From contig CAZNVR010000001.1 in the NCBI GenBank assembly GCA_964576655.1, positions 26,637 through 90,636 on the forward strand: a DNA stretch of 64,000 nt, written 5' to 3'. Positions within the stretch are counted from its first letter, which is position 1. Every line of letters starts with the position of its first letter. This DNA comes from an uncultured Legionella sp. GTDB taxonomy: Bacteria > Pseudomonadota > Gammaproteobacteria > Legionellales > Legionellaceae. The position numbers were made by a program, and so were the translations under genes. Shown piece by piece: positions 1-59,320 of this stretch. The notes beneath the pieces were generated by a model, which searched no databases, was not told the origin of the DNA, and saw nothing but the letters and a program-made list of their open reading frames with translations.

Positions 1-295
1 AATCTTTAACACTTATGCCATGATATGCAGCTTGTGAAAGCGTATTTTCTTCGGCGTGACAACATATACACTCATGTAAATCAATGCTCGATGCAATATT
101 ATGATTATTGCAGCGTGGACATCCACCTTCATCGCAATTCTGAATGCCTCGTGGTGTACCATTATATCCAGTGGAAATAATACGTCCATCTTTTACTAAG
201 ATCGCGCCGACTTGACGACGACAACAGCTTGAGCGCATAGCGACAACACTTGCAATGCGTAAAAAATATTCATCTAAAGTCATTTTATTCATCAT
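1..295 (-). CDS. dCMP deaminase (deoxycytidylate deaminase family), N-terminal part only; 3' end lies beyond the window start
   Basis: Hand translation of the minus strand from ATG 295 (alternatives 292/283) gives MMNKMTLDEYFLRIASVVAMRSSCCRRQVGAILVKDGRIISTGYNGTPRG..GGCPRC..HECICCHAEENT. It has the CxHAEEN zinc/catalytic-Glu motif. It is missing from the ORF track because it is truncated. Confidence 0.8.
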   Translation of the reverse strand, partial: MMNKMTLDEYFLRIASVVAMRSSCCRRQVGAILVKDGRIISTGYNGTPRGIQNCDEGGCPRCNNHNIASSIDLHECICCHAEENTLSQAAYHGISVKD

Positions 296-692
296 TTGTA
301 TCAAAATCTAAATATTGCGTAAAATCATGCTTTGATTTCATTTTTCGGTGTAGTTTCATTAGAGATCGTTTAATATATAAATCGGCAGATGTGATAGTAG
401 AATTTGTAAGTGTTGCAATTTCATCTAATGTATGGACCTTATTATGTAGATGCTGATATGTGAAAAAGCAATAGTTGCTATCACCATGGACTATATACCA
501 TTCGCACTGCTCGTGAGGTGGACCTTGTTGATAGATCGTATTCAAGGCATATGGACACGGTTCACCAGAAAGACATTTGAGCTGACGAGGACAACGTGAA
601 TCCATTGGAATTGTTGAATAAAGTCGTTCTTTCTCTTTAGGATTCATTAAGTTAATGTCTTCAAATCCAGTTGTAATTTTCTTTTTACGCAT
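285..692 (-). CDS. Cys/His-rich small protein with C-terminal sigma-70 region-4-like helix-turn-helix
   Basis: 135 aa. N-terminal CPRQLKC..PCPY..HEQCEW..YCFF cluster. The C-terminal HTLDEIATLTNSTITSADLYIKRSLMKLHRKM resembles a sigma region 4.2 HTH. Confidence 0.4.
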   Translation of the reverse strand: MRKKKITTGFEDINLMNPKEKERLYSTIPMDSRCPRQLKCLSGEPCPYALNTIYQQGPPHEQCEWYIVHGDSNYCFFTYQHLHNKVHTLDEIATLTNSTITSADLYIKRSLMKLHRKMKSKHDFTQYLDFDTNDE

Positions 693-699
693 TGAGATT

Positions 700-705
700 A
701 TTATA
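700..705 (-). promoter_or_regulatory. -10 hexamer TATAAT located 7 nt upstream of ATG 692 (leaderless geometry)
   Basis: Minus strand reads TTTCGTATTATAATAATCTCA-ATG. There is no Shine-Dalgarno between the hexamer and the start. Confidence 0.4.
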
Positions 706-806
706 ATACGAAATTATGAAAAATGAAATATACTATTTATTTTAATCTATAAATCATAATTAAAAAAGAAAAAAGATAGATTACAATAGCAATTAATAGG
801 GATGTG

Positions 807-2918: not shown

Positions 2919-3527
2919 TTACGTAAAATCAACCTCTACTTTTAATCTAACGTTGAGACTAGGAATACCAATTTTATTCACTAATCCATATTGAACAGCT
3001 TCTTCTGTACCTATATACCAATCAGCATGGCCTCGTTTATGAACTAATTTTGTAAAGTAATCTTCACGTTTACCACAATTCTTAGCCAATATTGTATAAA
3101 TAAGGTTATTTAATTTAATTAATTGCTCTGTATCAGATTTAATTTCGCCAATCTTGCCCATCGACATACTGGATGCATCATGGATCATAAATGTCGAATT
3201 AGCGGAAGCAAATCGCATCCCATCTGTACCACAAGAGAATAGAATAACACCACAACTCATTGCTTTACCAACACATATAGTCGCGACAGACTTTTTACAT
3301 GATCGTATAATGTCGATCATAGCTAATAATGAATAAACGCATCCGCCATAAGAATCAATTAAAATAGGAATAACTGGTTGACTTGATTGCGATGCCCTTA
3401 AGACATCAGCATGAAAATTTTTTACGGCAGATTCATTAAATTCATTAACAGTTACAATGACCGGTAAATCGATAAGATCCTCTGCTTTTTTACTTTTAAA
3501 GGCATTATCAATTTCTATATTGATCAT
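2919..3527 (-). CDS. ClpP-family serine protease-like protein
   Basis: Motifs IDSYGGCVYSLLAMIDIIRS, GKAMSCGVILFS (Ser), FMIHDAS (His) and C-terminal EEAVQYGLVNKI. The start is moved to ATG 3527 (MINIEID), 2 nt after the upstream stop. Confidence 0.7.
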   Translation of the reverse strand: MINIEIDNAFKSKKAEDLIDLPVIVTVNEFNESAVKNFHADVLRASQSSQPVIPILIDSYGGCVYSLLAMIDIIRSCKKSVATICVGKAMSCGVILFSCGTDGMRFASANSTFMIHDASSMSMGKIGEIKSDTEQLIKLNNLIYTILAKNCGKREDYFTKLVHKRGHADWYIGTEEAVQYGLVNKIGIPSLNVRLKVEVDFT

Positions 3528-3529
3528 AA

Positions 3530-4273
3530 TTATCTTATACCATCTAATCTCCAAAAACGTTCTAACATTGTCATTTGTAATTTTTCAATAGCATCGCGAT
3601 CTGGTGCCCATTGTAAGAGGGATTTTTGATATAATGTATCAATACGTTCCTCTAATTGAATGGCTTGTGCTAAAACAGTTTCTAATGAATAGACTCCTGA
3701 TCGAATATCTTTTAATTCTTCAACATGTAGTGATGGGTAAATAATTTCTTCATGTTCAAAAATATCAATCGCTTCATATAAGAGTCGTATAAGATGCATA
3801 GCAAACTTCGTGTCATAACCATACTGTTCAATTAGCGCATAACGTTTACTATTAGCTTGAGGATTCTTAATAAGAATCTTATGACGTTGAGTATGAGCAT
3901 ATCCTTTAAAAGCATGATATGCTTTCTTAGATAAAAATAAATGACGATTCTCTATAAGTTCTTCGCCAAACATTGTATTATAAACAATCTTGTTTTCAGG
4001 CGTATAGAGAATACTAAGGATGTTTGGATTATTAGCGATCGCTAATTGAATAAATTTGATTAAACCATAGCACGTATAATCAACATTTTTACCATCAATT
4101 TTATCATTAAGAACAAGATGTTCACATTTCGATAATCCATATACATATTCTTTTGGAAAGATACAAATGCCTTGGAAGTCATCATCTGATTCAATAGTAT
4201 CAGTACCATAAAGTTTGGAGCCGGTTCGAACCTTAAGAATTAAATTCTCTTGTGCGAGTCGTTGTTCTTGCAT
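3530..4273 (-). CDS. Pol-beta superfamily nucleotidyltransferase (RlaP / PF10127-like, RNA-ligase-associated)
   Basis: 247 aa. The N-terminal VRTGSKLYGTDTIESDDDFQGICI is the GS..SDxD nucleotidyltransferase signature. It sits in the same operon as Rnl1. Confidence 0.6.
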   Translation of the reverse strand: MQEQRLAQENLILKVRTGSKLYGTDTIESDDDFQGICIFPKEYVYGLSKCEHLVLNDKIDGKNVDYTCYGLIKFIQLAIANNPNILSILYTPENKIVYNTMFGEELIENRHLFLSKKAYHAFKGYAHTQRHKILIKNPQANSKRYALIEQYGYDTKFAMHLIRLLYEAIDIFEHEEIIYPSLHVEELKDIRSGVYSLETVLAQAIQLEERIDTLYQKSLLQWAPDRDAIEKLQMTMLERFWRLDGIR

Positions 4274-7979: not shown

Positions 7980-8519
7980 CTAATCGTTTGTAGATGTGTC
8001 ATGATGATCGATTGGCTCCCATTCCTTGGTTTTCATAATCTCTTGAACTTGATCAAATGAAATTGGTCTATAATCATTGACATCTATACCAACATCATGC
8101 TGTCGTAAATTTGGAAGTATCTCTAATGTACCATGACTATGGCCATGGAGATTCCAACTTCCATGATGTGAGTTGCGCCAAGTTCTCATCGCATAATGAC
8201 ATAAAACTATTAATTGTTTTTGATACTTAAGTTCATAATAGTCTTTAACCCATTCAAAGCGTTCAGCATAGATTTGTTTATCGTGATTTCCTTTAACTAA
8301 GTAGATCCGACCTTTTAAAGAATCAAGAATATCTTTTGTGGTGTTATATGATCCTAAAGCAAAATCACCTAAATGATATATTTCATCAGTTAAGCTGACT
8401 GTATCATTCCATCGTTTTACAAGTTCTTCATTCATCTCTTGAACAGAAGCAAATGGACGATTGCAATATTTTATAACATTGGCATGATTAAAATGCGTAT
8501 CGGCAGTAAAGAAAATCAT
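7980..8519 (-). CDS. calcineurin-like metallophosphoesterase
   Basis: 179 aa. Motifs DTHFNH, HLGDF, VKGNHD, LCHY and HGHSHG appear in the canonical order. Confidence 0.8.
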   Translation of the reverse strand: MIFFTADTHFNHANVIKYCNRPFASVQEMNEELVKRWNDTVSLTDEIYHLGDFALGSYNTTKDILDSLKGRIYLVKGNHDKQIYAERFEWVKDYYELKYQKQLIVLCHYAMRTWRNSHHGSWNLHGHSHGTLEILPNLRQHDVGIDVNDYRPISFDQVQEIMKTKEWEPIDHHDTSTND

Positions 8520-10140: not shown

Positions 10141-11094
10141 TTATCTTTCTAAATATGCATTACTAACAATCTTAAGTTGGAGTCTACCGACTTCGTATTC
10201 ATATCGCTCAATAGTAGGTCTAATCACAATTCCTTCTCGTATCTGATTCTCATATAATTCTGTCTTTCCTTCGGCTAAATCTTTGATTTTGAGCTCACTA
10301 TATGGCCCACGGTATATGAGTGGACAGAACTGCATACCTTGACCCATCGACTGCATTTCATCATAACTGAGCCATCTGCCATGATCGTAGACGTCAAAGA
10401 CTCTAATATCAGGTTCGGAACGCCCATATCTAAGGTCTTGCACAGGTCCGAACACTTCTCCATAGACTGCAAGTCCTTCGTGCGCCTGAAGCCAAGTCGA
10501 TAACCATGGACAATTCTTTAAAGCATTCCACCACATATTATTATCGGCTTCTTTAACCCATCGAGTGCGTGATCCACAATGCATCTGTCCGTTAACAAAA
10601 ACGAATCGACCATTTGCTCCATGGACCTTCTCTGTTGCGACGATCTCTTCATTCTCTTGGAATAAATGTCCATATCTATGCCATGATTCAACGTCATAAA
10701 TTGGATAAACGCCTTCTGGTGCATTGGCTTCTTCAGCGAATGAACTAATGCCTCGAATAGGTGGATCATATCGTGTGATACCAATTATCGGTGCCGCATC
10801 ATCTCCTTCTTTTAATCCTTCAGGTGATGGTATCAATAATCCTTGAGAATATACACCCCTAAAACGACGAACTTTAATTCGTTTGCTATCTTTCAGGAAG
10901 TCGAATTGTGGAGTATCTGGTACAACGCTGTCTGGCTGTATATAAACCGCAAGATCTCCTTCGTGCCAATCAGCTAGGCGAACACAGATTGTAAAATTCC
11001 ATATCTTAACAATACCTAAGGTATCGGCATTTGGATGTTTTTCGATTGCTCCAAGTTGAACAACGTCAGCTCTATGGGTTGATTTTGTTTCCAT
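10141..11094 (-). CDS. RNA ligase, Rnl2/DraRnl(Rnl5)-like: N-terminal OB-like domain plus adenylyltransferase domain
   Basis: 317 aa. Motif I is EKVHGANGRF (T4 Rnl2 has EKIHGTNFS). VYGEVFGPVQD matches VFGEFAGPGIQ. The N-terminal 110 aa resemble the OB module of DRB0094-type ligases. Confidence 0.7.
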   Translation of the reverse strand: METKSTHRADVVQLGAIEKHPNADTLGIVKIWNFTICVRLADWHEGDLAVYIQPDSVVPDTPQFDFLKDSKRIKVRRFRGVYSQGLLIPSPEGLKEGDDAAPIIGITRYDPPIRGISSFAEEANAPEGVYPIYDVESWHRYGHLFQENEEIVATEKVHGANGRFVFVNGQMHCGSRTRWVKEADNNMWWNALKNCPWLSTWLQAHEGLAVYGEVFGPVQDLRYGRSEPDIRVFDVYDHGRWLSYDEMQSMGQGMQFCPLIYRGPYSELKIKDLAEGKTELYENQIREGIVIRPTIERYEYEVGRLQLKIVSNAYLER

Positions 11095-11569: not shown

Positions 11570-12052
11570 TTATTTATTCACCTTATGTCTACTAATATAC
11601 CGTTTAAGTTCATCGAAATTCTTAAAAACCATGTTGCCTTTCATCTTTGATACCGTCAAGGGCCAACCACTAAGTTTCCTAGATGTTACGATATAGCATG
11701 GAATGTCATGATAACCAGCAAAGGTAAGTTCTGAAACTGTTCCAGTTGAGTACTTGGTAAAATAGCAGATGATAAAACTGGTTCGGTACTTGATTTGATT
11801 CAAGTCATTCAACATTATCTCAACTTGAAGTGGGATAGGAAACTTGTCCCATTGATGTGGTTTAATCTTACTTAAGTCGTACTTTTGATGAAACTCTACT
11901 TCATCTACACAGGGATCGAAGCATTGTAAATCGTATTTCGCCAACCATTTACGCAACATCTTGCGCCATTGAGCTCCAAATGTCTTCATTCCTGACATTG
12001 AACCAGCCAAGTAAATTACCTTCTTATTTTTGAATATCATGGATATTAGCAA
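11570..12052 (-). CDS. nucleoside 2-deoxyribosyltransferase-like superfamily protein (start uncertain: TTG 12052 or ATG 12040)
   Basis: The N-terminal KKVIYLAGSMSG..W...L......FDP pattern is typical of the N-deoxyribosyltransferase/DUF4406 fold. Confidence 0.4.
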   Translation of the reverse strand: MLISMIFKNKKVIYLAGSMSGMKTFGAQWRKMLRKWLAKYDLQCFDPCVDEVEFHQKYDLSKIKPHQWDKFPIPLQVEIMLNDLNQIKYRTSFIICYFTKYSTGTVSELTFAGYHDIPCYIVTSRKLSGWPLTVSKMKGNMVFKNFDELKRYISRHKVNK

Positions 12053-12069
12053 TATCCTTTGTAAGGATA

Positions 12070-12381
12070 CTACTCTCCTATTTTAGTATTAGTTAAGTCT
12101 TCTGGACTTAACTTATTTTCATCTATTAAGGTCTGATAAACATCACCATTTTCAATGATTTTTTTATCCTCATACGGTGCTGCGATGCGACGATAGAACT
12201 CAAGTTTAGCAGATTCTAATGCACCAACCACATCATTGACTCCAATGTACTTTAAGCCTTTATAACGTAAGTATTTAATGACTGTTAGTGTAACAAGATA
12301 ATTTAATTGACCAGGATCTGCTGGACTATTATTTTCGTGATAGGCGATGTAGGTTTTTAGTTCTTTTGTTAGATACGGCAT
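12070..12381 (-). CDS. hypothetical protein (GQLNYLVT motif)
   Basis: 103 aa with a strong SD (AAAAGGAGCAATA-ATG). Overlaps the upstream ORF by 53 nt. Confidence 0.6.
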   Translation of the reverse strand: MPYLTKELKTYIAYHENNSPADPGQLNYLVTLTVIKYLRYKGLKYIGVNDVVGALESAKLEFYRRIAAPYEDKKIIENGDVYQTLIDENKLSPEDLTNTKIGE

Positions 12382-12712
12382 TATTGCTCCTTTTTATTGT
12401 TGACCATCGATCATCAAGATTTTGATGAGTCTTTGTATGCTCCAATAAAAAAGAAATGTCGCACATTGCATGCGATAAGTGGAGCAATTTACTTTCAGGA
12501 TCATGATCTTCACCATCCCAAAATGCTGTTAAGTGACGTTGAATAGCTGCATAGGTACGTGACCATTTGACACCATTTCGCCAATTATGGTCATTGTACT
12601 TCAAAGATCCAAAACCTAATACATCAGCCATACATTGTAATGGGTAGATAGGAATTAAATCCATGCGTCTTTTTTGATGATCTTTTTTAATGCCTTCTTT
12701 TTGATTCTTCAT
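12329..12712 (-). CDS. DUF5664-like protein (N-terminal domain of dATP/dGTP diphosphohydrolases)
   Basis: RMDLIPIYPLQCMADVLGFGSLKYNDHNWRNG..AAIQRHLTAFWDGEDHDPESKLLHLSHAMCDISFLLE matches my recollection of the R.DL.P..KY...NW..G..RH...W..GE..D.ESG..HL.H pattern. Confidence 0.5.
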   Translation of the reverse strand: MKNQKEGIKKDHQKRRMDLIPIYPLQCMADVLGFGSLKYNDHNWRNGVKWSRTYAAIQRHLTAFWDGEDHDPESKLLHLSHAMCDISFLLEHTKTHQNLDDRWSTIKRSNNAVSNKRTKNLHRLSRK

Positions 12713-17547: not shown

Positions 17548-17871
17548 CTATCGTCTAACGTTAGATTCATTTTTCGCATTGATGTCTTTTTCATATATAT
17601 TATGGAAATATAGAGGAGGACTACCTTTAATCCTTTCATTCAGCATTGCATCAGCTATCTGATAAGATTGTTTACATAACGTTTTGTGGGTTATTGATGC
17701 TTCATCAAACATATCGCCTTTTCCACCCCATCTTAAAATCCCACTTTGCATAGCTTTAGCTGCAAAATAATCGCGGAGCGAAATATCAACACTAATGTTT
17801 GGAATATCATTTGCTATTACATCAGAAACAAACATTGGAAAAGCTGGTCCGCCATCTTTATTATTTTTCAT
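17548..17871 (-). CDS. hypothetical phage protein (GGPAFP / SLRDYFAAxAM motif family)
   Basis: 107 aa. DGGPAFP and ISLRDYFAAKAMQSGIL are motifs I recognise from widespread phage proteins of unknown function. Confidence 0.6.
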   Translation of the reverse strand: MKNNKDGGPAFPMFVSDVIANDIPNISVDISLRDYFAAKAMQSGILRWGGKGDMFDEASITHKTLCKQSYQIADAMLNERIKGSPPLYFHNIYEKDINAKNESNVRR

Positions 17872-17880
17872 GTATAGTTC

Positions 17881-18264
17881 CTATATATTTTGCAATGTAT
17901 TTTTAATATTATTCAAATCATTAGATATACGGTCTCCTATATAGTCTTTGACTATTCCAAAGAATCCTTTACCAAGCTCTTCGTTAATAGCGCGTGTTAC
18001 TTCATCTTTATGATCTGTCATCCATTCTTTAGCAGCTAAAGCAACCTGAGGCTTAAGTTCTTTTTGAATTAATTCAATAAATAACGAAGTCTTTGGTGAA
18101 TCATAATAACCATTAGTCTTTCGTTCTTTAAAGAATGATTCATGAACCGCTGCTTCTACGATTCTTTTTAGATCCTCATGAGTCATTAAATCACCCATTG
18201 ACTCTTGTATCTTGGTAAACATGCGTTGTTGAAATGTTTGTGTTGTATCAATTGTAGTGGTCAT
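17881..18264 (-). CDS. hypothetical protein
   Basis: 127 aa. No motif recognised. Confidence 0.6.
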   Translation of the reverse strand: MTTTIDTTQTFQQRMFTKIQESMGDLMTHEDLKRIVEAAVHESFFKERKTNGYYDSPKTSLFIELIQKELKPQVALAAKEWMTDHKDEVTRAINEELGKGFFGIVKDYIGDRISNDLNNIKNTLQNI

Positions 18265-18719
18265 ATTATTGGTCTCCTTAGTATGTTTTGAATTTTTTTA
18301 AAGTACTCGTATATTTTAAACCATATTGGATGACGACGTTTGATATGAATAACGACTTTATCTCCAATGATTTTATACCGTCCAGGATTTACTTCATATA
18401 CTGGAACTGTATTGCCAACGCCATCAACTACTAATGCATTAGTTGAAAAAGTACCTTTATAAGTATCACCAATGATTGGCATTTGACGATTGAAAATGGG
18501 GACATCGCAATCACATTCAAAGCTTTGACTACTGCTCTCACGTCCGCATTTTGTACAAGTATTTGTCATTTTTTCCAGTCTCCATGGTTGGGGTTCATTT
18601 GCCATATATGTTGGAAGATAGTGGCCATCTGAAGAACCCCGCGTATCATCATTGGATGCTATCTTTAGGCTATTATTCGCTATTGAAATATAACATTTTG
18701 CCATATCATATTGTTTCAT
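18261..18719 (-). CDS. hypothetical protein
   Basis: 152 aa with a CTKCG..CDC cluster. Confidence 0.6.
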   Translation of the reverse strand: MKQYDMAKCYISIANNSLKIASNDDTRGSSDGHYLPTYMANEPQPWRLEKMTNTCTKCGRESSSQSFECDCDVPIFNRQMPIIGDTYKGTFSTNALVVDGVGNTVPVYEVNPGRYKIIGDKVVIHIKRRHPIWFKIYEYFKKIQNILRRPII

Positions 18720-22360: not shown

Positions 22361-23098
22361 TTACCACGTCGCCTTCGTCAAATGCCAGATACAGTTACGT
22401 GAGAATTGTGGAAATAATGGTGCAAATAACACAGCTAATGTATTTGTATCATAATATTGTTGGAGATGCGCAAAATGATCTTGCTGCGCTGTCGACATAT
22501 GAGGCAAAATATCTTTTTGACTTGCAAACGTTCCATAATGTGCTTCAATATTAAAACGTTTTGAAAGCTCTTCCTTAAGCTCATCATATCGCCATTCATA
22601 TACATGATTTTCAGCTGCTGAACCATTAAAACAGGGGGTTGATAGAAAGACTTTTGTATGTGGTTTAGTCCATTGTGCAATTGTATCAAGAAGTTTTAAC
22701 CCAGAATCACGGTCAACATGTTCAATAACTTCGAAACATGTAATAATATCATAATCATGATCCGGAACAATTTCAGGTTGCTTAATTAAATCAACTTGAT
22801 AAAATTCCGTGGGAAAATTAGTTTTAATATTCTCTTTATTATGGCTCACCGCACTTTCACGATACTCTAATCCTACATAAAGCGAAGGTTTTGCTTTATT
22901 AGAATACAATGCCATACACATTGGTGCATCTTTACCACATCCAACATCAAGAATCTTTTTTTCACGACCCCAAAATTTCGCAACATGTGTCCATCGTAAA
23001 TGATGAGCTAAAATATCACGATGCATAACTTGACGCTTACTATATTGGTCAGCAGTTAACTGCGTCGTATTATAGCCATTTTTATTAATGTTCACCAT
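22361..23098 (-). CDS. class I SAM-dependent methyltransferase
   Basis: 245 aa. Motif I is KILDVGCGKDAP, and DIITCFEVIEHV is the post-II/III region. The substrate is not inferable. Confidence 0.7.
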   Translation of the reverse strand: MVNINKNGYNTTQLTADQYSKRQVMHRDILAHHLRWTHVAKFWGREKKILDVGCGKDAPMCMALYSNKAKPSLYVGLEYRESAVSHNKENIKTNFPTEFYQVDLIKQPEIVPDHDYDIITCFEVIEHVDRDSGLKLLDTIAQWTKPHTKVFLSTPCFNGSAAENHVYEWRYDELKEELSKRFNIEAHYGTFASQKDILPHMSTAQQDHFAHLQQYYDTNTLAVLFAPLFPQFSRNCIWHLTKATW

Positions 23099-26464: not shown

Positions 26465-26760
26465 TGACGAATCTCGATTTGTGACATTTTTGGATACTTA
26501 TCATCTAGCCGGAACATATAGACAGAACCGTCTGCTAAACACCATACTTTAGCGACGCCATATTGCTTTGGATCATCATCAATTAATTCTCCTAATAGTC
26601 GCTGTAATTGTTCATATTTAACATCAATCAATTTACGACTAATTTTTGATGCATTATCAAATGCAAACAATGGCCATAAGTGATTTAATCCATTGTTGTC
26701 AATAGCACCAATAATCATTGATCCATGATCTTGCTTAATTAATTTTAATCCTATGTCCAT
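26461..26760 (-). CDS. hypothetical protein (leaderless geometry)
   Basis: 99 aa. The ATG lies 6 nt after TGGTATAAT. Confidence 0.6.
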   Translation of the reverse strand: MDIGLKLIKQDHGSMIIGAIDNNGLNHLWPLFAFDNASKISRKLIDVKYEQLQRLLGELIDDDPKQYGVAKVWCLADGSVYMFRLDDKYPKMSQIEIRQ

Positions 26761-26825: not shown

Positions 26826-27761
26826 TTATGCTGCCAACTGTATCGCGTCATGAAGTGCGCGCTCTTTTATTAATTTACCTTGACCAAACCATGCTTGATT
26901 TAAGCGCGTATCGCTGTGTCCTCTATAATGATCAACATACTGCGTTACTGCATTATATGCAGACCATAATGATCCACCAATCGATGAAAGATTGTTTGTT
27001 ATATCATTGTTAAATAAATCAACAATCTTTTCAACAGTGCGTGTTTCTTTATGCTTCTCAATAACGTTTAAATCAGTCAGTTGCGGATATATAACTTTCG
27101 TAACATATTGCTCAATATTTTTGACACCTACAGATGCTAAGTGACGATACTGTGTTAATGTAGCGTCAAATGTATTGTTGGCAGTATCAATGATTCCTCG
27201 TACATCTTCAAGATTTTGCACAACTCTTGATGAATGCATTAATCCAACACGCGGTGTATCCATTGCTTCAGCCATATTGAGAGTATTAGCGCAGACAACG
27301 CGTTGTGGAGTAAATTGTACATTTATTCCATTGCGACCATTATGTGCTGCAGATAAAAGAAGGAAGCGCTCGACAATATCGCCTTTAACAATTTCCATGT
27401 TATCGCCAGCTAATTTAACCAATATCCATATACGTGCACCACTTTGCAAACTGCCTGCAGTATGATATTGAGCTAAACCTGCTTTGACAATTGGATCAAA
27501 AAATGCAAAAGCTTCAACATTTTGAAGTGGTGTATATCGTGCTTTTACGACACCATAAACTTGTCCATCTGTTTCGCGTTGAATTGCAAGAAATTCATTA
27601 AATGTACGTTCGCCTACAGTAATGGGCTTTAAACCTACTTTCCAATCAAGACCAGCATCACGAATCGCTTCTTCAGATGTAGGTGGTTGATCTAATTTTT
27701 TACCTAATCCATGCCACGGTGTTTCGCCTACATAAAACATATTTTCAACTTGATGAGCCAT
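26826..27761 (-). CDS. DUF932 / phage-plasmid-like protein (TIGR03299-like)
   Basis: 311 aa. The N-terminus MAHQVENMFYVGETPWHGLGKKL is characteristic of that family. Confidence 0.6.
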   Translation of the reverse strand: MAHQVENMFYVGETPWHGLGKKLDQPPTSEEAIRDAGLDWKVGLKPITVGERTFNEFLAIQRETDGQVYGVVKARYTPLQNVEAFAFFDPIVKAGLAQYHTAGSLQSGARIWILVKLAGDNMEIVKGDIVERFLLLSAAHNGRNGINVQFTPQRVVCANTLNMAEAMDTPRVGLMHSSRVVQNLEDVRGIIDTANNTFDATLTQYRHLASVGVKNIEQYVTKVIYPQLTDLNVIEKHKETRTVEKIVDLFNNDITNNLSSIGGSLWSAYNAVTQYVDHYRGHSDTRLNQAWFGQGKLIKERALHDAIQLAA

Positions 27762-27896: not shown

Positions 27897-28262
27897 TTAA
27901 TGAACAGTTGATGACAAATTAGTGAGACGGCCTAATATCGATGTAGCTTGAATCTGTGCTAATAATTCAAGTGATTGTGATTGAGTAAAGGATAATAAAG
28001 CATCTTCCGATAGAGACGGTATAGCGAGTCGTAACATTGTGAATGTAATATCAGATTCAGCGCTTCCAAGTTTCGATAATTGTTCAATAATTGTTAAATC
28101 ACGAAGATCATATTCATAAATAGGATATAACTCACCGTCAACATAAGCATCACAAATCTTCTTTTTACGTGGATTTATTGGCAATAATGATGGACAATCG
28201 ACAACTTGAAGTTCAATAGGTGGATCATTATTGATGGAAGTTTCTTTTTTCTTATGATCCAT
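27897..28262 (-). CDS. hypothetical protein
   Basis: 121 aa. Confidence 0.6.
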   Translation of the reverse strand: MDHKKKETSINNDPPIELQVVDCPSLLPINPRKKKICDAYVDGELYPIYEYDLRDLTIIEQLSKLGSAESDITFTMLRLAIPSLSEDALLSFTQSQSLELLAQIQATSILGRLTNLSSTVH

Positions 28263-28270
28263 TAAGCTTA

Positions 28271-29218
28271 TTATACTACTTTTTTATGAGTTTTCGTTGA
28301 AAGAAACAATGCAAGGTCTTTAGAATAGCATGCAATTTTATTCATTTGTATTGTGGTGTCTTTTTGTTTCCAAATTGATTTTAAAACAAACATTTCCACA
28401 AATAATTGCCAAAAAGGATCAATTGGTAAAAGCTCATGTGGATAATCATTCATATTAGAATTACGTAATATGCCTTCAATAATAGAAACATTATCTAGAT
28501 TATTCAGATTATCTTCTAAAGAAGTAGAATGTAATATCGGTAACTCTCCTGATGTCGATTGTTCATCAATCAACTCACGGGCTAATTGAAAATGTGCTTC
28601 ATATATATGCATTGAATTAGCAGTTAAATAAAGTTCACCCGGCACAATTCCAACACAACTTGCAATAAAATTTAATAACAAACAAAATGATGGCACATCA
28701 TAATTGTTTCCCCAAATGGCGTCATTGCTTCGCATTAAAACATGTAGATTTAATTGATTGTCGCGAATTAAAAAATGTAATGCCACAGTACACGGAACAT
28801 CTTTGCTAGTAGGTGGATTCCATCTCCAAAATGTCATGATTGCTTGACGTGTATCAGGATCTTTTTTTAAGGTATTAACCACAAAACGTAATTGTTCACG
28901 AAATGGTATGCCATACGCACCGTCATGGATACCGTCTTCTGAAAAAGACGAGATGTTTTTGTTATAATAATGCAGCATGGCTGTATCATTACGACCTAAT
29001 AAATACCATAGATTTTCAGCAAATAAAAAGAAAAAATTAAGATTACGTTTTTCTGATAAATATAAGCACTTCAATGGATCAATAGGACCCATCGTGTATG
29101 GACCACGAGCCTCTAGAGTTAATTGACCTCTTGGCGAAACTTTACGACCATTTGTTAAAATACAATCAACGGCTTTTTTAAACTCTATATGATATTCGTG
29201 ACCTTGTTGCAAAATCAA
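28271..29218 (-). CDS. ThyA-family pyrimidine C5-transferase, dCMP hydroxymethylase-like (T4 gp42-like)
   Basis: 315 aa. DPDTRQAIMTFW, catalytic-Cys motif VPCTVALHFLIRD and MRSNDAIWGNNYD are present. Asp occupies the position of E. coli ThyA Asn177, as with Asp179 of T4 gp42. Confidence 0.7.
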   Translation of the reverse strand: MILQQGHEYHIEFKKAVDCILTNGRKVSPRGQLTLEARGPYTMGPIDPLKCLYLSEKRNLNFFFLFAENLWYLLGRNDTAMLHYYNKNISSFSEDGIHDGAYGIPFREQLRFVVNTLKKDPDTRQAIMTFWRWNPPTSKDVPCTVALHFLIRDNQLNLHVLMRSNDAIWGNNYDVPSFCLLLNFIASCVGIVPGELYLTANSMHIYEAHFQLARELIDEQSTSGELPILHSTSLEDNLNNLDNVSIIEGILRNSNMNDYPHELLPIDPFWQLFVEMFVLKSIWKQKDTTIQMNKIACYSKDLALFLSTKTHKKVV

Positions 29219-30167
29219 CTCCTTTCGTAAACATCTCGGCGTATTCTTTTAATTTTTCATAATGAAAACGTTTCCAATATGAAGGATGTGGTATCATAAT
29301 CTTATTTGAATCATCATCAATTTCATATTTCGTTGCAAAATCCGCAGCTTTTTGTCCTAGAAAAACAATCGTCTTCGGCTTAATCCATTGAATTTCAAGC
29401 TTCAGTATTTCGGCTGCAACATCATCATTAGGAAGCCAAGGTTTAAAAGCATTTGTTAAATAGATGTCCTTCTTATACAAATTTGATTCTTTTAGCGTCG
29501 AATATAAATACTCTGATGAAGTACCAGAAGAAAATGGATATTCATTCAATGTGGCTTTAGGACGTAATTGTTCGCCAACAATCATAATTTCAGCGTTACG
29601 ACTTCCAGTACTTCGTGCATCAATAGTATTCAATTTAGAATTAATAAATGAAGTATTCGTACGTCTTTCGATAAGTGGTTGGACATGCGCGACAAATGTT
29701 TGAGCTGAACATTTAGCAGAATCATAAAAAATTGGATTTAATGAAGATTTTTTCAAAATTATTTCATTAAATAATTCAATCGCTTTATTGATGTCATTAT
29801 TATAATTAAATTCCGCTAATGATTCATTAGTTGCAACACAGCGATTATAAATAGTTTTGGCATCGGTTGACGAATAAATTAATAATGCATCATTCTTTTT
29901 TGCCAACATATCAAAAACCCAAAATTGAAAATCTGAAATTGTACATCCATCACGATAAAGATTTGAATAAACATATTCACCTAAATAAAATCGATCAAAC
30001 ACAACATCTTGACCTTCATATTCTTGGAATAATTGTAAGTATTCTTGATAAGGATTGTTAGTCTGTGGCTTAGAACAATGAATTAACTTAAAATTAAAAT
30101 CACGCGCTATTATTTCCGCTAAAGTTGATTTTCCAGATCGATCTAATCCTTCAATTATGATAAACAT
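29178..30167 (-). CDS. fusion protein: thymidylate/dNMP kinase-like P-loop domain + uracil-DNA-glycosylase-superfamily domain
   Basis: 329 aa. The N-terminus has IIIEGLDRSGKSTLAE..DRFYLGEYVY (Tmk-like). The C-terminus has EIMIVGEQ, IYLTNAFKPW, PKTIVFLGQKAA and IPHPSYW (UDG family-4-like motifs A/B). Confidence 0.6.
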   Translation of the reverse strand: MFIIIEGLDRSGKSTLAEIIARDFNFKLIHCSKPQTNNPYQEYLQLFQEYEGQDVVFDRFYLGEYVYSNLYRDGCTISDFQFWVFDMLAKKNDALLIYSSTDAKTIYNRCVATNESLAEFNYNNDINKAIELFNEIILKKSSLNPIFYDSAKCSAQTFVAHVQPLIERRTNTSFINSKLNTIDARSTGSRNAEIMIVGEQLRPKATLNEYPFSSGTSSEYLYSTLKESNLYKKDIYLTNAFKPWLPNDDVAAEILKLEIQWIKPKTIVFLGQKAADFATKYEIDDDSNKIMIPHPSYWKRFHYEKLKEYAEMFTKGVDFATRSRISYRV

Positions 30168-31673: not shown

Positions 31674-31907
31674 TCATTGTATATTCGGTTTTTGATTATT
31701 TAATCGTTTAGACCATTCAAGTTCATATAAAATTAAAGATTTAATATTTTGGTAATATTGATCTTTTAAAGGTTCCCATCTTTCGAGTGCCTTTGGATCT
31801 TGTAAAATACTAAATCCAACACACAATGTCCGAATTTCATCAAAAATTTTAAAAATCTTTTCCTTAACATCAGAAATAGATGATATATCAATGTCATCAT
31901 TTATCAT
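31674..31907 (-). CDS. hypothetical protein
   Basis: 77 aa. Confidence 0.55.
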   Translation of the reverse strand: MINDDIDISSISDVKEKIFKIFDEIRTLCVGFSILQDPKALERWEPLKDQYYQNIKSLILYELEWSKRLNNQKPNIQ

Positions 31908-32356
31908 TTTGTAGCCACCTTTGAATATCCACGATTAATACGTTTAATATTTTCGCTATTTTTTGCCATATAAAAATCAAATAACTCTTGTGCTGATAGA
32001 TTAAAAATTAAACAAAGATTAACAAAAAAATGTAGAATATCAACTAATTCCATCTTAATTTCTTTTACTTCATCTTGTGATGGATTAAAATCTTCTGGAA
32101 CTTTATAATTTCTCCATGGCTTCCAAGGTGTTCTATTTAAAAGTTCATGCAATTCATCGGTCAATGCTAACACCATATCTTTGACTACTATAGGTTTTTC
32201 TATTTGATTATCAAGATTTTGTAAATCATTTCCATATAGAAGTTGAAGTTTTTTTTGATATGCAAATATTGTTTCTAATTTATTCTCAATGTTATCTAAC
32301 GGAATAACATCAACATTAGCACATTGGTTTTCAGGATTAATTATTCTAGTTGACAT
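31904..32356 (-). CDS. all-alpha NTP pyrophosphohydrolase (dimeric dUTPase / MazG-like)
   Basis: 150 aa. LALTDELHELLNRTPWKPWR and EIKMELVDILHFFVNL match the E..E..WK.W / E.VD.LHF pattern of dUTPase_2/MazG enzymes. Confidence 0.6.
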   Translation of the reverse strand: MSTRIINPENQCANVDVIPLDNIENKLETIFAYQKKLQLLYGNDLQNLDNQIEKPIVVKDMVLALTDELHELLNRTPWKPWRNYKVPEDFNPSQDEVKEIKMELVDILHFFVNLCLIFNLSAQELFDFYMAKNSENIKRINRGYSKVATK

Positions 32357-49218: not shown

Positions 49219-50088
49219 TTATAAATCACGTGGTACTGGACCTATAATGTCGTTCTTATTTTGATAAATAAAACTAATATTTGGATTTTTTGAAGATCCA
49301 TTAATTTCGGCAGTATTTTGTAAATTGTCTTTTACAACAATAGACGGACATGTCATTTTTTTCCAATCATTCGCGGTCAATTGTGGTATTCTATGTTTAA
49401 CATCATCTTGTATTTGTTGAAAAACAATACTTGCATTCTTAATTAAATCATCAATTGAACTATTGTTTTGAATTGTTGCAAATGGTTTAATTTGTTTCCA
49501 TTCATTTTCGCTAATATGTTGACTATATGAATCATCTTCAATTGAGCGACCATTAATTAGAATAGGATAAAAAAGTGGGAATACTTCACGGGCATATTTT
49601 TCTTCATGGAGGAAACGAAGATCTGTGATAAACCATACCCCTGAATAACCGCGAATTTTATCATATGCAATATGGCAATGAAATGATTTAAAAATTGATT
49701 GAATCATATCTGTTCCAATAAACTGCAATATGGCACGTGGAGTCATAAATGAACGATCACAATATTTTTGAATTCCAACTTTATGTAATTTAAGATTATG
49801 CTGTTTTTTAATTTCATCAGACAGTGCGCGATCCATCATATCTAAAATTCCGCGTATATGATGGCCTTTTAAAACAAAAGGACGAGGTAAAACGTTATCT
49901 TTATAGGTATTAAATAAATCTAAAGGTAGTTTTAATATTTTACTACATATCTCTTTAAGAAAAGTGGCGCTGGCAACTTTTCCTACAGCATTCATTGTTT
50001 TAATGCTCAACTCTGCGAGCGTATCTTTACCAGCTCCTTTAGAACCCATTAGAGCAATAACAACTTGAGTTTGAACTTTATCAGACAT
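49219..50088 (-). CDS. dNMP kinase-like P-loop protein (T4 gp1-like N-terminus) with C-terminal extension
   Basis: The start is moved to ATG 50088 (SD AAGAGG). IALMGSKGAGKDTLAE parallels T4 gp1 LSGVKRSGKDT. Confidence 0.5.
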   Translation of the reverse strand: MSDKVQTQVVIALMGSKGAGKDTLAELSIKTMNAVGKVASATFLKEICSKILKLPLDLFNTYKDNVLPRPFVLKGHHIRGILDMMDRALSDEIKKQHNLKLHKVGIQKYCDRSFMTPRAILQFIGTDMIQSIFKSFHCHIAYDKIRGYSGVWFITDLRFLHEEKYAREVFPLFYPILINGRSIEDDSYSQHISENEWKQIKPFATIQNNSSIDDLIKNASIVFQQIQDDVKHRIPQLTANDWKKMTCPSIVVKDNLQNTAEINGSSKNPNISFIYQNKNDIIGPVPRDL

Positions 50089-57616: not shown

Positions 57617-59320
57617 TTATGATTCGTTTTGACCTTCTTCATTAACATAAAAATTATCCTTAATTTTCATATTGGAGGGTTTAATAATAATGGATCCACC
57701 ACTTCGTAATAACATAGTGGCAATTGAAACAGCATTCGATAATGCCGTTTTAACAACTTTAAAAGGATCAATTACGCCAGCTTGTATCATATCTTCTTCA
57801 ATTCTATTAGCTCTTGCATTATAGCCTACATTTGGATATTCCATAAATTTATTTAATAATTCCAAAACAACAATATCTGCGCTACGTTTCCCAGAATTAT
57901 AAATAATTTGACGTATTGATGCTTCACAAATCTTGCCAAAAATTTGCATTGCAATTTGTTCTTCTCGCGATACACCATCAACTAATGCATTCTGTTGATC
58001 GCATAACATCTGAAAAGCAAAGAGTAAAGCAGAACCACCTCCTGCTACAACACCTTCCTCTAAAGCAGCACGAGTTGCATTTAAGGCATCTTCAATTCGA
58101 TCCTTCTTTTCTTTCATTTCAAGTTCAGTAACAGCACCAACTTCAATAATAGCAATGCCACCAATTAAACGTCCTAAGCGTTCTTTTAATATATCTCTAT
58201 CAAATTCTGAAGGAGCATCTTTCATCTGAACACGCAAAGCGTCAGCGCGTGACTGAATTTCAGCATCAGAACCACTACCATTATAAATAATGGTTTCACG
58301 TCGTGATCCAATAATACGTTCAGCACCACCTAAATATTCGCTATCATGATTAGTAATATCAGATAATTTACTCAATCCCGGCCTTACAACTTTAGCACCG
58401 CTTAAGATTGCAATATCGTCAATAACATTGCTTTGACTATACATTGATCCAAGTTTAGGAACTTTAATTGGCAAAAGTTTTAGACCCATCTGTTGGGCAT
58501 TAATCATAACAATATTTATGATTTGAGGAGAAAAATCATGAGCAAAAATCACTAATGGAATAGCATCTTGACCACCACAATTGATTGAATTTAAACAACG
58601 ACCAAAATCGACAACATCATCGATAACTCCATCATAAGCAATAATGGCTGGCGTTTCATAACGGACTTGCTGTGCAACTGGTGCATTAATTAAGCAGACT
58701 CCATGGGGTCCTAAGCTACCAAAACCACGCTGAATTGAGAAGCCTTCTTCTAATCTCAGCGCTGTTCGAATTCCACCTTCTTCTAAAGACACAACGCCAT
58801 CAACTCCGACAGCATCAATAGCTTTTGTTACAATTTCAGCTATTTCATCATCGCCATTACAAGATATATAAGCAACATTATGAACTTTATCTGTTGTGTT
58901 GATTTCCACTGCTAATTTTGATAGTTGTTCAATAAGCATTGTAGAAACTTTAATTAGATGATCTCCTAAACTTTGCGGATTAATTGTATTAGTTTGAAGA
59001 TAGGCTTGTGATTCCTTAATAAGTGATTCAGTAAGCAAAATCGCTGTAGTTGTTCCATCACCAGCAATAGAATTTGTTTTCATTGCTGCTTCTTTAATAG
59101 ATTGAATAATAGCATTAATAGCGGGATCTTCGACAAATACATGATTAGCAACAGTTACGCCATCTTTTGTAATTAGTGGAACTTGACCAGGTCTATCTAA
59201 TACAATTGGAAGACCATCTGGACCTAAGGTAGCTTTAACAGGTTCAGCAAGAAGCTGAATAGCTTGTAAAACTTGTTTTTGAAAATCTACCTTACTATAA
59301 ATGAGTTTTGCATCAGACAT
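57617..59320 (-). CDS. groEL: GroEL-family chaperonin
   Basis: 567 aa with LGPDGLPIVLD, AGDGTTTAILL, VVAGGG and an overall collinear Cpn60 layout. Confidence 0.9.
   Translation of the reverse strand: MSDAKLIYSKVDFQKQVLQAIQLLAEPVKATLGPDGLPIVLDRPGQVPLITKDGVTVANHVFVEDPAINAIIQSIKEAAMKTNSIAGDGTTTAILLTESLIKESQAYLQTNTINPQSLGDHLIKVSTMLIEQLSKLAVEINTTDKVHNVAYISCNGDDEIAEIVTKAIDAVGVDGVVSLEEGGIRTALRLEEGFSIQRGFGSLGPHGVCLINAPVAQQVRYETPAIIAYDGVIDDVVDFGRCLNSINCGGQDAIPLVIFAHDFSPQIINIVMINAQQMGLKLLPIKVPKLGSMYSQSNVIDDIAILSGAKVVRPGLSKLSDITNHDSEYLGGAERIIGSRRETIIYNGSGSDAEIQSRADALRVQMKDAPSEFDRDILKERLGRLIGGIAIIEVGAVTELEMKEKKDRIEDALNATRAALEEGVVAGGGSALLFAFQMLCDQQNALVDGVSREEQIAMQIFGKICEASIRQIIYNSGKRSADIVVLELLNKFMEYPNVGYNARANRIEEDMIQAGVIDPFKVVKTALSNAVSIATMLLRSGGSIIIKPSNMKIKDNFYVNEEGQNES

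Follow-up and report, generated by a model that had tools for sequence, protein, structure and literature searches.

A predicted phage deoxycytidylate 5-hydroxymethylase with a MilA-like fold, encoded within a conserved phage gene cassette

In the stretch of 64,000 nucleotides analysed here (the window; positions 26,637 to 90,636 of contig CAZNVR010000001.1, assembled under an uncultured Legionella sp.), an open reading frame (ORF) of a phage, on the minus strand at 28271-29218, encodes a homolog of thymidylate synthase (ThyA), and the question that this locus raises is which nucleotide the enzyme accepts and which group it leaves on the base. An earlier note, made from the sequence of the window alone, had read the gene as a probable hydroxymethylase (or methylase) of deoxycytidine monophosphate (dCMP), implying modified cytosine in the virion DNA. 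From the evidence given below it seems that the gene probably encodes a folate-dependent deoxycytidylate 5-hydroxymethylase, which would convert dCMP to 5-hydroxymethyl-dCMP (5hm-dCMP), and that the virion DNA would most likely have its cytosine replaced by 5-hydroxymethylcytosine (5hmC) or a derivative thereof.

When read from its first TTG, the ORF encodes 315 amino acids (aa). Its translation includes DPDTRQAIMTFW and VPCTVALHFLIRDNQLNLHVLMRSNDAIWGNNYDVPSF, the strings quoted in the earlier note, and residues 13-232 match PF00303 (Thymidylat_synt) with E = 1.6e-25 in a Pfam scan, so that the resemblance to the ThyA family, as claimed before, is beyond chance. An AAAGGAG Shine-Dalgarno sequence lies 6 nt 5' of a second TTG (29212), which makes 28271-29212 the most likely coding sequence. 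The upstream kinase gene runs on for 35 nt beyond this start, an overlap that suggests translational coupling of the two. A groundwater metagenome (SRR2177968) has the identical protein on record (at 313 aa), on contigs of up to 103.5 kb; megablast of 8 kb against 50,697 GenBank phage records returned no near-identical phage genome.

To compare the residues of the active site, 115 sequences were aligned with MAFFT L-INS-i, with E. coli ThyA as the anchor and, as further references, T4 gp42 (deoxycytidylate hydroxymethylase, dCH), a MilA segment, the enzymes of Xp12 and PaMx74, RB69 gp48, and those of SP-10 and the ViI-like Det7 (positions below are in E. coli ThyA numbering, residues named with three letters in that of the protein itself). 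In this alignment Cys143 of the query corresponds to the catalytic C146, Thr144 to H147, Arg163-Ser164-Asn165-Asp166 to R166-S167-C168-D169, and Asp174 to N177; the same placement results when the query is aligned by HMMER with MilA or with a solved ThyA. The Asp in place of Asn177 and the Thr after the catalytic Cys, on which the earlier note was built, are therefore recovered by both methods, and the T4 gp42 strings that it had quoted do occur in the actual T4 sequence (FMCTNTVQYLIRD and MRSNDVVFGFRND). The residues that define the superfamily (E58, Y94, R126, R166, S167, D169, H207 and Y209 in E. coli ThyA, plus the catalytic Cys) are all aligned in the query, as Glu68, Tyr102, Arg124, Arg163, Ser164, Asp166, His204, Tyr206 and Cys143, to which Asp140, Thr144 and Asp174 are added as key residues.

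What sets the members of the superfamily apart is the combination at positions 143, 146, 147, 169 and 177. The query (Asp140, Cys143, Thr144, Asp166, Asp174) reads D-C-T-D-D, for which 5hm-dCMP would be the predicted product, and the same signature is found in T4 gp42, which makes 5hm-dCMP, and in MilA, which makes the 5-hydroxymethyl derivative of cytidine monophosphate (CMP). The others differ: L-C-H-D-N in E. coli ThyA (deoxythymidine monophosphate, dTMP), N-C-P-D-D in Xp12 and PaMx74 (5-methyl-dCMP), E-C-T-N-D in RB69 gp48 (5-hydroxy-dCMP), and D-C-N-D-N in SP-10 and Det7 (5-hydroxymethyl-deoxyuridine monophosphate, 5hm-dUMP). D-C-T-D-D is present in all 105 database homologs of the query and in all 80 relatives taken from IMG/VR, a scan of which yielded at least 587 stretches (viral contigs) that encode relatives. 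Asp174, equivalent to T4 Asp179 and to ThyA Asn177, is invariant in both sets (105 and 80), as is Asp140, which lies within K-D-V-P-C143, across all relatives.

Experimental work stands behind these positions. Asn177 specifies dUMP and Asp177 dCMP, the N177D change redirects ThyA to dCMP, and no positions are more strongly associated with cytosine-modified viral contigs than 177 and 147 (PMC8670742). Position 143 is hydrophobic in ThyA. In T4 dCH it is Asp145, located three residues ahead of the catalytic Cys, by which the substrate water is activated, and the D145N mutant makes no 5hm-dCMP (PMC6400193). As for the sugar, Ala176 and Lys133 of MilA (ThyA Ser167 and Arg126) set its preference for the ribonucleotide, and A176S/K133R reverses this preference to dCMP (PMC5175136); the query has the deoxyribo-type pair Ser164 and Arg124, with Ser and Arg in 185 of 185 relatives, which would indicate a deoxyribo substrate.

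The overall architecture is not that of a thymidylate synthase. Against all eight NCBIfam ThyA equivalogs the query scores 28-67 bits, with cutoffs of 108-576, and its best sequence match among solved structures is MilA (E = 9e-24), the best true ThyA following at 2e-16. An AlphaFold2 model built on the 105 homologs (mean pLDDT 89.5, pTM 0.89) has in Foldseek a probability of 1.0 against many ThyA structures, which match the core alone (TMq 0.55-0.64); the sole full-length match is MilA (TM 0.80, about 317 columns), including a three-helix C-terminal extension that in the query covers residues of about 233-306. The ThyA tail of the Y-(D/N)-P-x-P type, which closes over the folate (PMC6400193), is kept in Xp12 and PaMx74 and missing from the query. 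A long helical C-terminal extension takes its place in the query, MilA, SP-10 and Det7, while T4 dCH is without a tail altogether.

Pairwise scores order the references in a similar manner. The homolog of Pseudoxanthomonas phage PW916 is at 148 bits, followed by MilA (106), SP-10 (103), Xp12 (85), Det7 (83, aligned over the full length), PaMx74 (75), E. coli ThyA (69), T4 gp42 (58 bits over 133 residues, the second lowest of nine references) and RB69 gp48 (52). In a neighbour-joining tree (232 columns, 100 bootstraps) the query falls with PW916 in a well-supported clade (supports 100, 100, 100 and 87), of which MilA, SP-10 and Det7 are the nearest characterised neighbours, then gp42 and RB69, with Xp12 and PaMx74 outside and ThyA as the outgroup. 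Clustering with bona fide thymidylate synthases, for which the earlier note had proposed a check, was thus not found, and all the computational checks proposed there agree with its reading.

The likeness to T4 gp42 that the same note had drawn stands in part. Both enzymes have D-C-T-D-D, the MRSND motif and the deoxyribo-type Ser and Arg, both lack the ThyA-type tail, and both phages pair the enzyme with a gp56-like NTPase, a gp1-like deoxynucleoside monophosphate kinase and a dCMP deaminase. With 58 bits and separate clades in the tree, however, orthology is rejected: the query is not a gp42 orthologue, though gp42-like in its predicted active-site chemistry, and its lineage seems nearer to MilA and SP-10 than to gp42. 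Unlike gp42, it has Gly/Ala where T4 has Ser94, as well as a MilA-like helical C-terminal extension of roughly 100 aa, and the replisome of its phage, unlike that of T4, consists of DnaE/DnaB/DnaG, with no glucosyltransferase recognisable in the window. MilA itself (CMP 5-hydroxymethylase of mildiomycin biosynthesis; PDB 5b6d, 5jnh) shares the signature and the full-length fold with its extension, but differs from the query in the ribo-type pair Ala176 and Lys133, is only 27-32% identical, and belongs to bacterial secondary metabolism, whereas the query gene lies in a phage replication module.

The alternative that survives best, although it is unlikely, is a dCMP methyltransferase of the Xp12 kind (5-methyl-dCMP synthase), in which Asp174 would pick dCMP, hydride from the folate would complete the methyl group, and the deaminase would then make dTTP from the 5-methyl-dC nucleotide pool. 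Asp177 by itself cannot tell methyl from hydroxymethyl products, and in gene content (a ThyA homolog with a deaminase and an NTP pyrophosphatase) the locus is similar to the operons of Xp12 and PaMx74, where an Asp177 ThyA homolog is likewise accompanied by a deaminase and by a pyrophosphatase or hydrolase. The Xp12 enzyme has been verified to make 5-methyl-dC, PaMx74 DNA is fully 5-methylated at cytosine, and of seven metavirome ThyA homologs with Asp177 and a linked deaminase, five made 5-methyl-dCMP, in a text that gives no residue data (preprint, bioRxiv 10.1101/2024.12.05.627091). Some enzymes in similar deaminase and pyrophosphatase contexts are therefore methylases, and this is the main residual doubt on the hydroxymethylase call. 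Against the methylase, the verified enzymes read N-C-P-D-D (Asn143, Pro147) and not D-C-T-D-D, they retain the ThyA-type tail, their operons hold dihydrofolate reductase (DHFR), which suits a reaction that produces dihydrofolate and which occurs in none of 80 loci of the query type, and they fall in a separate clade at 75-85 bits. The carboxylate at position 143 is, moreover, the water activator in T4 dCH (PMC6400193). On three of these points, i.e. Asp140 at the water-activating position, the absent ThyA-type tail and the lack of linkage to DHFR, the verified methylases all differ from the query, and of the two products left side by side in the earlier note it is thus the hydroxymethylated one that is favoured.

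Several further observations weigh against the hydroxymethylase reading. In T4 dCH, Ser94 holds Asp145 and the catalytic water and is reported essential for positioning the water (PMC6400193), and its counterpart in the query is Gly100-Ala101, just before Tyr102 (family consensus G-A-Y-G). SP-10 and Det7 are also without a hydroxyl at this position, and MilA has Thr; a Ser or Thr here is thus not universal among hydroxymethylases. No biochemically characterised enzyme falls within the query's clade, and the deep nodes that join this clade to the known hydroxymethylases have bootstrap values of only 57-59. The phage is uncultivated and known from metagenome contigs alone. Finally, the linked S-adenosylmethionine (SAM) methyltransferase and the domain resembling uracil-DNA glycosylase (UDG), both described below, have no role in a plain 5hmC pathway.

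The remaining alternatives fare worse. A dUMP hydroxymethylase of the SPO1/SP-10/ViI type, serving a 5-hydroxymethyl-uracil pathway in which dUMP would come from the deaminase, is quite improbable: SP-10 and Det7 count among the closest characterised relatives, the window encodes a dCMP deaminase and an NTPase of the dUTPase family, and the PW916 homolog is annotated accordingly, but the query and 185 of 185 relatives have Asp at position 177, where SP-10 and Det7 have Asn, and at position 147 the Thr of the query stands against Asn in those two. The PW916 gene (3280-4098, plus strand; GenBank 'deoxyuridylate hydroxymethyltransferase') has itself Asp at 177 and the full D-C-T-D-D, its label is an annotation without experimental support in the PW916 paper, and the product name is probably wrong about the base. 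More improbable still is a flavin-dependent 5-hydroxy-dCMP synthase of the RB69 gp48 / DLP3 gp80 kind, with which the query has Asp177 and an acidic residue at 143 in common; D169N, the mark of these enzymes (PMC13326640), is absent, Asp166 at that position being invariant in the query's family, RB69 gp48 is the most distant reference, and neither sugar-nucleotide genes nor arabinosyl- or glycosyltransferase genes were found in the annotation of the window. An ordinary thymidylate synthase (dUMP to dTMP) can hardly be entertained, since beyond the PF00303 match and the label 'thymidylate synthase' that homologs carry in databases there stand the equivalog scores far below cutoff, the non-ThyA residues at 143, 147 and 177 (Asp140, Thr144 and Asp174), the missing Y-D-P-x-P tail, and the separate ThyX that Stenotrophomonas phage AXL3 has besides its homolog of the query.

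For a deoxycytidylate 5-hydroxymethylase, the activity, the flux of nucleotides and the composition of the virion DNA, as read from the residues, fold, clade, gene linkage and conservation of the cassette, would be as follows. The gp56-like NTPase would convert dCTP to dCMP and so lower dCTP. Cys143 would attack C6 of dCMP, with Asp174 hydrogen-bonded to N3 and the N4 amine of the base, thereby selecting cytosine, and the methylene of 5,10-methylene-tetrahydrofolate would move to C5. Water activated by Asp140, and not hydride, would then add to the exocyclic methylene, giving 5hm-dCMP and tetrahydrofolate; with tetrahydrofolate as product and no hydride transfer, DHFR would be unneeded. The 5hm-dCMP would be phosphorylated by the coupled Tmk-like kinase, by the gp1-like deoxynucleoside monophosphate kinase (DNMK), or by both, and the host nucleoside diphosphate kinase would yield 5hm-dCTP, which the phage DnaE replicase would build into DNA, so that cytosine would be replaced by 5hmC or a derivative. 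The deaminase would meanwhile supply dUMP for dTMP synthesis by the host.

The genes that this scheme calls upon are not peculiar to the window (Table 1). Counts were made over 80 IMG/VR loci, by tblastn of seed proteins against the flanks, and most of these share a cassette in which a methyltransferase and an NTP pyrophosphatase accompany the ThyA homolog, together with a deaminase and a kinase that in some loci is joined to a UDG-like domain. Relative to the ThyA homolog, the typical place of the NTP pyrophosphatase (76 of the 80 loci) is just upstream, that of the dCMP deaminase (70) immediately downstream, that of the P-loop kinase (57; with a UDG-like domain directly after the kinase domain in 31) immediately upstream, and that of a methyltransferase of the window's family (56) 1.5-3 kb upstream. 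A DUF932 gene is present in 14 loci, typically about 3.4 kb upstream, and the T4 beta-glucosyltransferase in none. The window encodes all five cassette genes, spread over about 32 kb, and in its closest relatives (P0002, P0003 and P0005) the NTPase, kinase and ThyA homolog are kept beside DnaE. The methyltransferase family occurs in four distinct phages among the 50,697 GenBank phage records, all four of which have the D-C-T-D-D cassette.

Table 1. Location and assignment of the ThyA homolog, its cassette partners and associated genes in the window.
Feature	Coordinates	Strand	Assignment and basis
ThyA-family enzyme, predicted dCMP 5-hydroxymethylase	28271..29212 (ORF to 29218)	minus	313 aa; PF00303, MilA match, residues, AlphaFold2 model
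Kinase-UDG-like fusion	29178..30167	minus	N-terminal YorR/Tmk-like P-loop kinase (candidate 5hm-dCMP kinase); C-terminal family-4/UdgX-like UDG fold
All-alpha NTP pyrophosphatase, dUTPase_2 type, candidate dCTPase/dUTPase	31904..32356	minus	PF08761, E = 6.9e-13; PHROG 173
T4 gp1-like DNMK, second candidate kinase for the modified deoxynucleoside monophosphate	49219..50088	minus	PF21448, E = 2.4e-8; PHROG 139, E = 1e-22; adjoins DnaE
dCMP/dCTP-deaminase-family gene	1..295	minus	PF00383, PF14437; NCBIfam ComEB/dCMP deaminase-type matches; N-terminal 98 of 153 codons in the window
Class I SAM-dependent methyltransferase	22361..23098	minus	Pfam Methyltransf_23/31/11/25/12; nearest O-methyltransferases UbiG, Hen1
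DUF932/TIGR03299 'phage/plasmid-like protein'	26826..27761	minus	PF06067, E = 1e-43; TIGR03299 227 bits, above cutoff; two genes from the ThyA homolog

The neighbours were annotated from precomputed Pfam calls on the parent contig together with Pfam, PHROGs and NCBIfam scans, and they bear out most of what the earlier note had listed around the ThyA homolog. The deaminase is there, as a fragment at the edge of the window, and so are the DnaE, DnaG and DnaB of the replisome. The all-alpha NTPase, proposed as a possible dCTPase, is 37% identical to the C-terminal 73 residues of the T4 gp56 dCTPase/dUTPase (pairwise E = 1e-12). Of the two proteins taken for deoxynucleoside monophosphate kinases the DNMK holds as such, while the other has a kinase domain but turns out to be a fusion with a UDG-like domain. 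Neither annotation nor tblastn, over the window and contig extensions, revealed a recognisable glycosyltransferase, ThyX, canonical ThyA or DHFR, in line with the earlier remark that no glycosyltransferase is visible in the window. The best tblastn match of the T4 beta-glucosyltransferase (E = 0.016 over 47 residues) lies inside a gene resembling single-stranded-DNA-binding proteins and was taken as chance.

The fusion protein matches Thymidylate_kin at its N-terminus and UDG (E = 1.4e-14) in Pfam, and YorR in the PDB (E = 2e-7). In its AlphaFold2 model (pLDDT 87.6) the kinase domain resembles in Foldseek SPbeta YorR and kinases of deoxynucleosides and dTMP (TMt 0.84-0.86; YorR 0.86), and the C-terminal domain family-4 UDG and UdgX (TMt 0.5-0.58). 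Across 30 examples of the UDG-like domain the motif-A Gly-[Glu/Asp], a Pro-Phe, an Asn and the motif-B His-Pro are conserved, with none of the Fe-S cysteines. A thymidine-hypermodification enzyme of the aGPT-Pplase/5-HMUDK type was also considered for this protein and rejected, there being no Pfam match to those families and the folds being those of family-4 UDG/UdgX and YorR. The methyltransferase has UbiG and Hen1 as its nearest matches in the PDB and NCBIfam, far under the cutoffs, and is a generic class I enzyme in Pfam and PHROGs; it may act on the hydroxymethyl product. The DUF932 protein is also encoded near the ThyA homolog in contig L013 (that of homolog P0002, from the closest related phage) and in MW202621, and its tie to the modification pathway is uncertain.

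A cultured counterpart of the cassette exists in phage AXL3, where the deaminase (gp27), the ThyA homolog (gp28), a 'thymidylate kinase' (gp29), the NTP pyrophosphatase (gp30) and the methyltransferase (gp31) are adjacent. The ThyA homologs of AXL3 and PW916 are about 40% identical to the query and have the same signature, gp29 is the same kinase-UDG-like fusion as in the window (end-to-end homology, E = 1e-18), and gp31 is homologous to the window's methyltransferase over its full length (E = 2e-35). In AXL3 and PW916, however, the five genes make up a single compact operon of a 47-kb PolA siphovirus, with a pyrophosphatase of the PRA-PH type. In the phage of the window they are scattered along a genome that is at least 100 kb long and has a DnaE replisome, and the pyrophosphatase belongs to the dUTPase_2 type. 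Between the window's NTPase and AXL3 gp30 no sequence homology was found, only superfamily membership and cassette position being common to both. AXL3 DNA was cut by only two of 37 restriction enzymes, both with A/T-only sites, while all 35 enzymes with G/C in their sites were resisted, and AXL3 has a ThyX of its own (PMC7504290).

Whether 5hmC is the end of the pathway is a separate matter. A tentative possibility is that the end product would be a cytosine derivative new to DNA, e.g. an O-methylated 5-hydroxymethylcytosine, with the D-C-T-D-D homolog as the first enzyme of the cassette and the UDG-like domain policing or processing the modified DNA. Such a derivative would explain why the methyltransferase family is restricted to phages with the D-C-T-D-D type of ThyA homolog, as well as the resistance of AXL3 DNA to all tested enzymes with G/C in their sites. 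Literature searches found no experimental work on the product of the cassette, on the chemistry of PW916 DNA, or on methoxymethyl-cytosine in phages.

Two relatives carry additional genes near their ThyA homologs. On contig L015 (that of homolog P0003, a DnaE phage) the ThyA homolog is directly preceded by a gene (1-780, plus strand) that touches the contig end and matches Glyco_trans_1_2 weakly (E = 1.2e-4), which would fit glycosylation of a hydroxymethyl group. With the L015 protein as tblastn query, nothing significant was found in the window and contig extensions. Contig L013 encodes, about 7 kb from the ThyA homolog (17677-18555, plus strand), a pyridoxal-phosphate-dependent enzyme (PF00291) with no counterpart in the window; enzymes of this kind participate in some thymidine hypermodification pathways.

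Directly downstream of the window's ThyA homolog lies an ORF of 121 aa (27897-28262, minus strand) without a match in Pfam, PHROGs or NCBIfam, the position of which is kept in L013 (10978-11343), the closest relative. Further away, the gene at 12329-12712 (minus strand) encodes the N-terminal domain of a dATP/dGTP diphosphohydrolase (PF18909, E = 5e-32) and adjoins a DUF6899 gene (12070-12381, minus) and one that weakly resembles nucleoside 2-deoxyribosyltransferases (11570-12052, minus; E = 0.003), and these three genes, at 11570-12712, may form a second module for editing the nucleotide pool. The diphosphohydrolase-like ORF prompted a Z-genome (2-aminoadenine) reading, which was rejected, as there is no PurZ-like gene in the annotation of the window. 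An Rnl1-type RNA ligase, an RlaP nucleotidyltransferase, a metallophosphatase and a second RNA ligase (1661-2794, 3530-4273, 7980-8519 and 10141-11094, respectively, all minus) are reminiscent of the T4-like set for tRNA/RNA repair. Other genes in the window encode the large subunit of ribonucleotide reductase, RecA, SbcCD, a portal protein, GroEL (57617-59320) and ClpP (2919-3554).

It is already established practice to predict modified cytosine from metavirome ThyA homologs that have Asp177 (PMC8670742), and the less ordinary features of this locus are its MilA-like rather than gp42-like lineage, its DnaE-type replisome, and a large cassette with an O-methyltransferase-like enzyme and a kinase-UDG-like fusion. 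To the cassette-specific methyltransferase and the fusion no role has been assigned in any pathway known so far, which makes the cassette a practical lead, and since AXL3 is cultured and has a G/C modification, the final base should be directly identifiable. DNA modified in this manner affects the evasion of restriction and CRISPR and can bias representation in sequencing libraries, and such modification systems are a source of new enzymes for epigenetic sequencing. If the prediction is true, a large and environmentally widespread clade would join the experimentally anchored residue code by which products of ThyA-family enzymes are predicted, and cytosine would be replaced by 5hmC or a derivative before replication in a phage with a DnaE/DnaB/DnaG replisome, unrelated to the T-even one. 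As the enzyme's lineage is closer to MilA and to dUMP hydroxymethylases than to gp42, the 5hmC strategy would then have been put together more than once from interchangeable parts.

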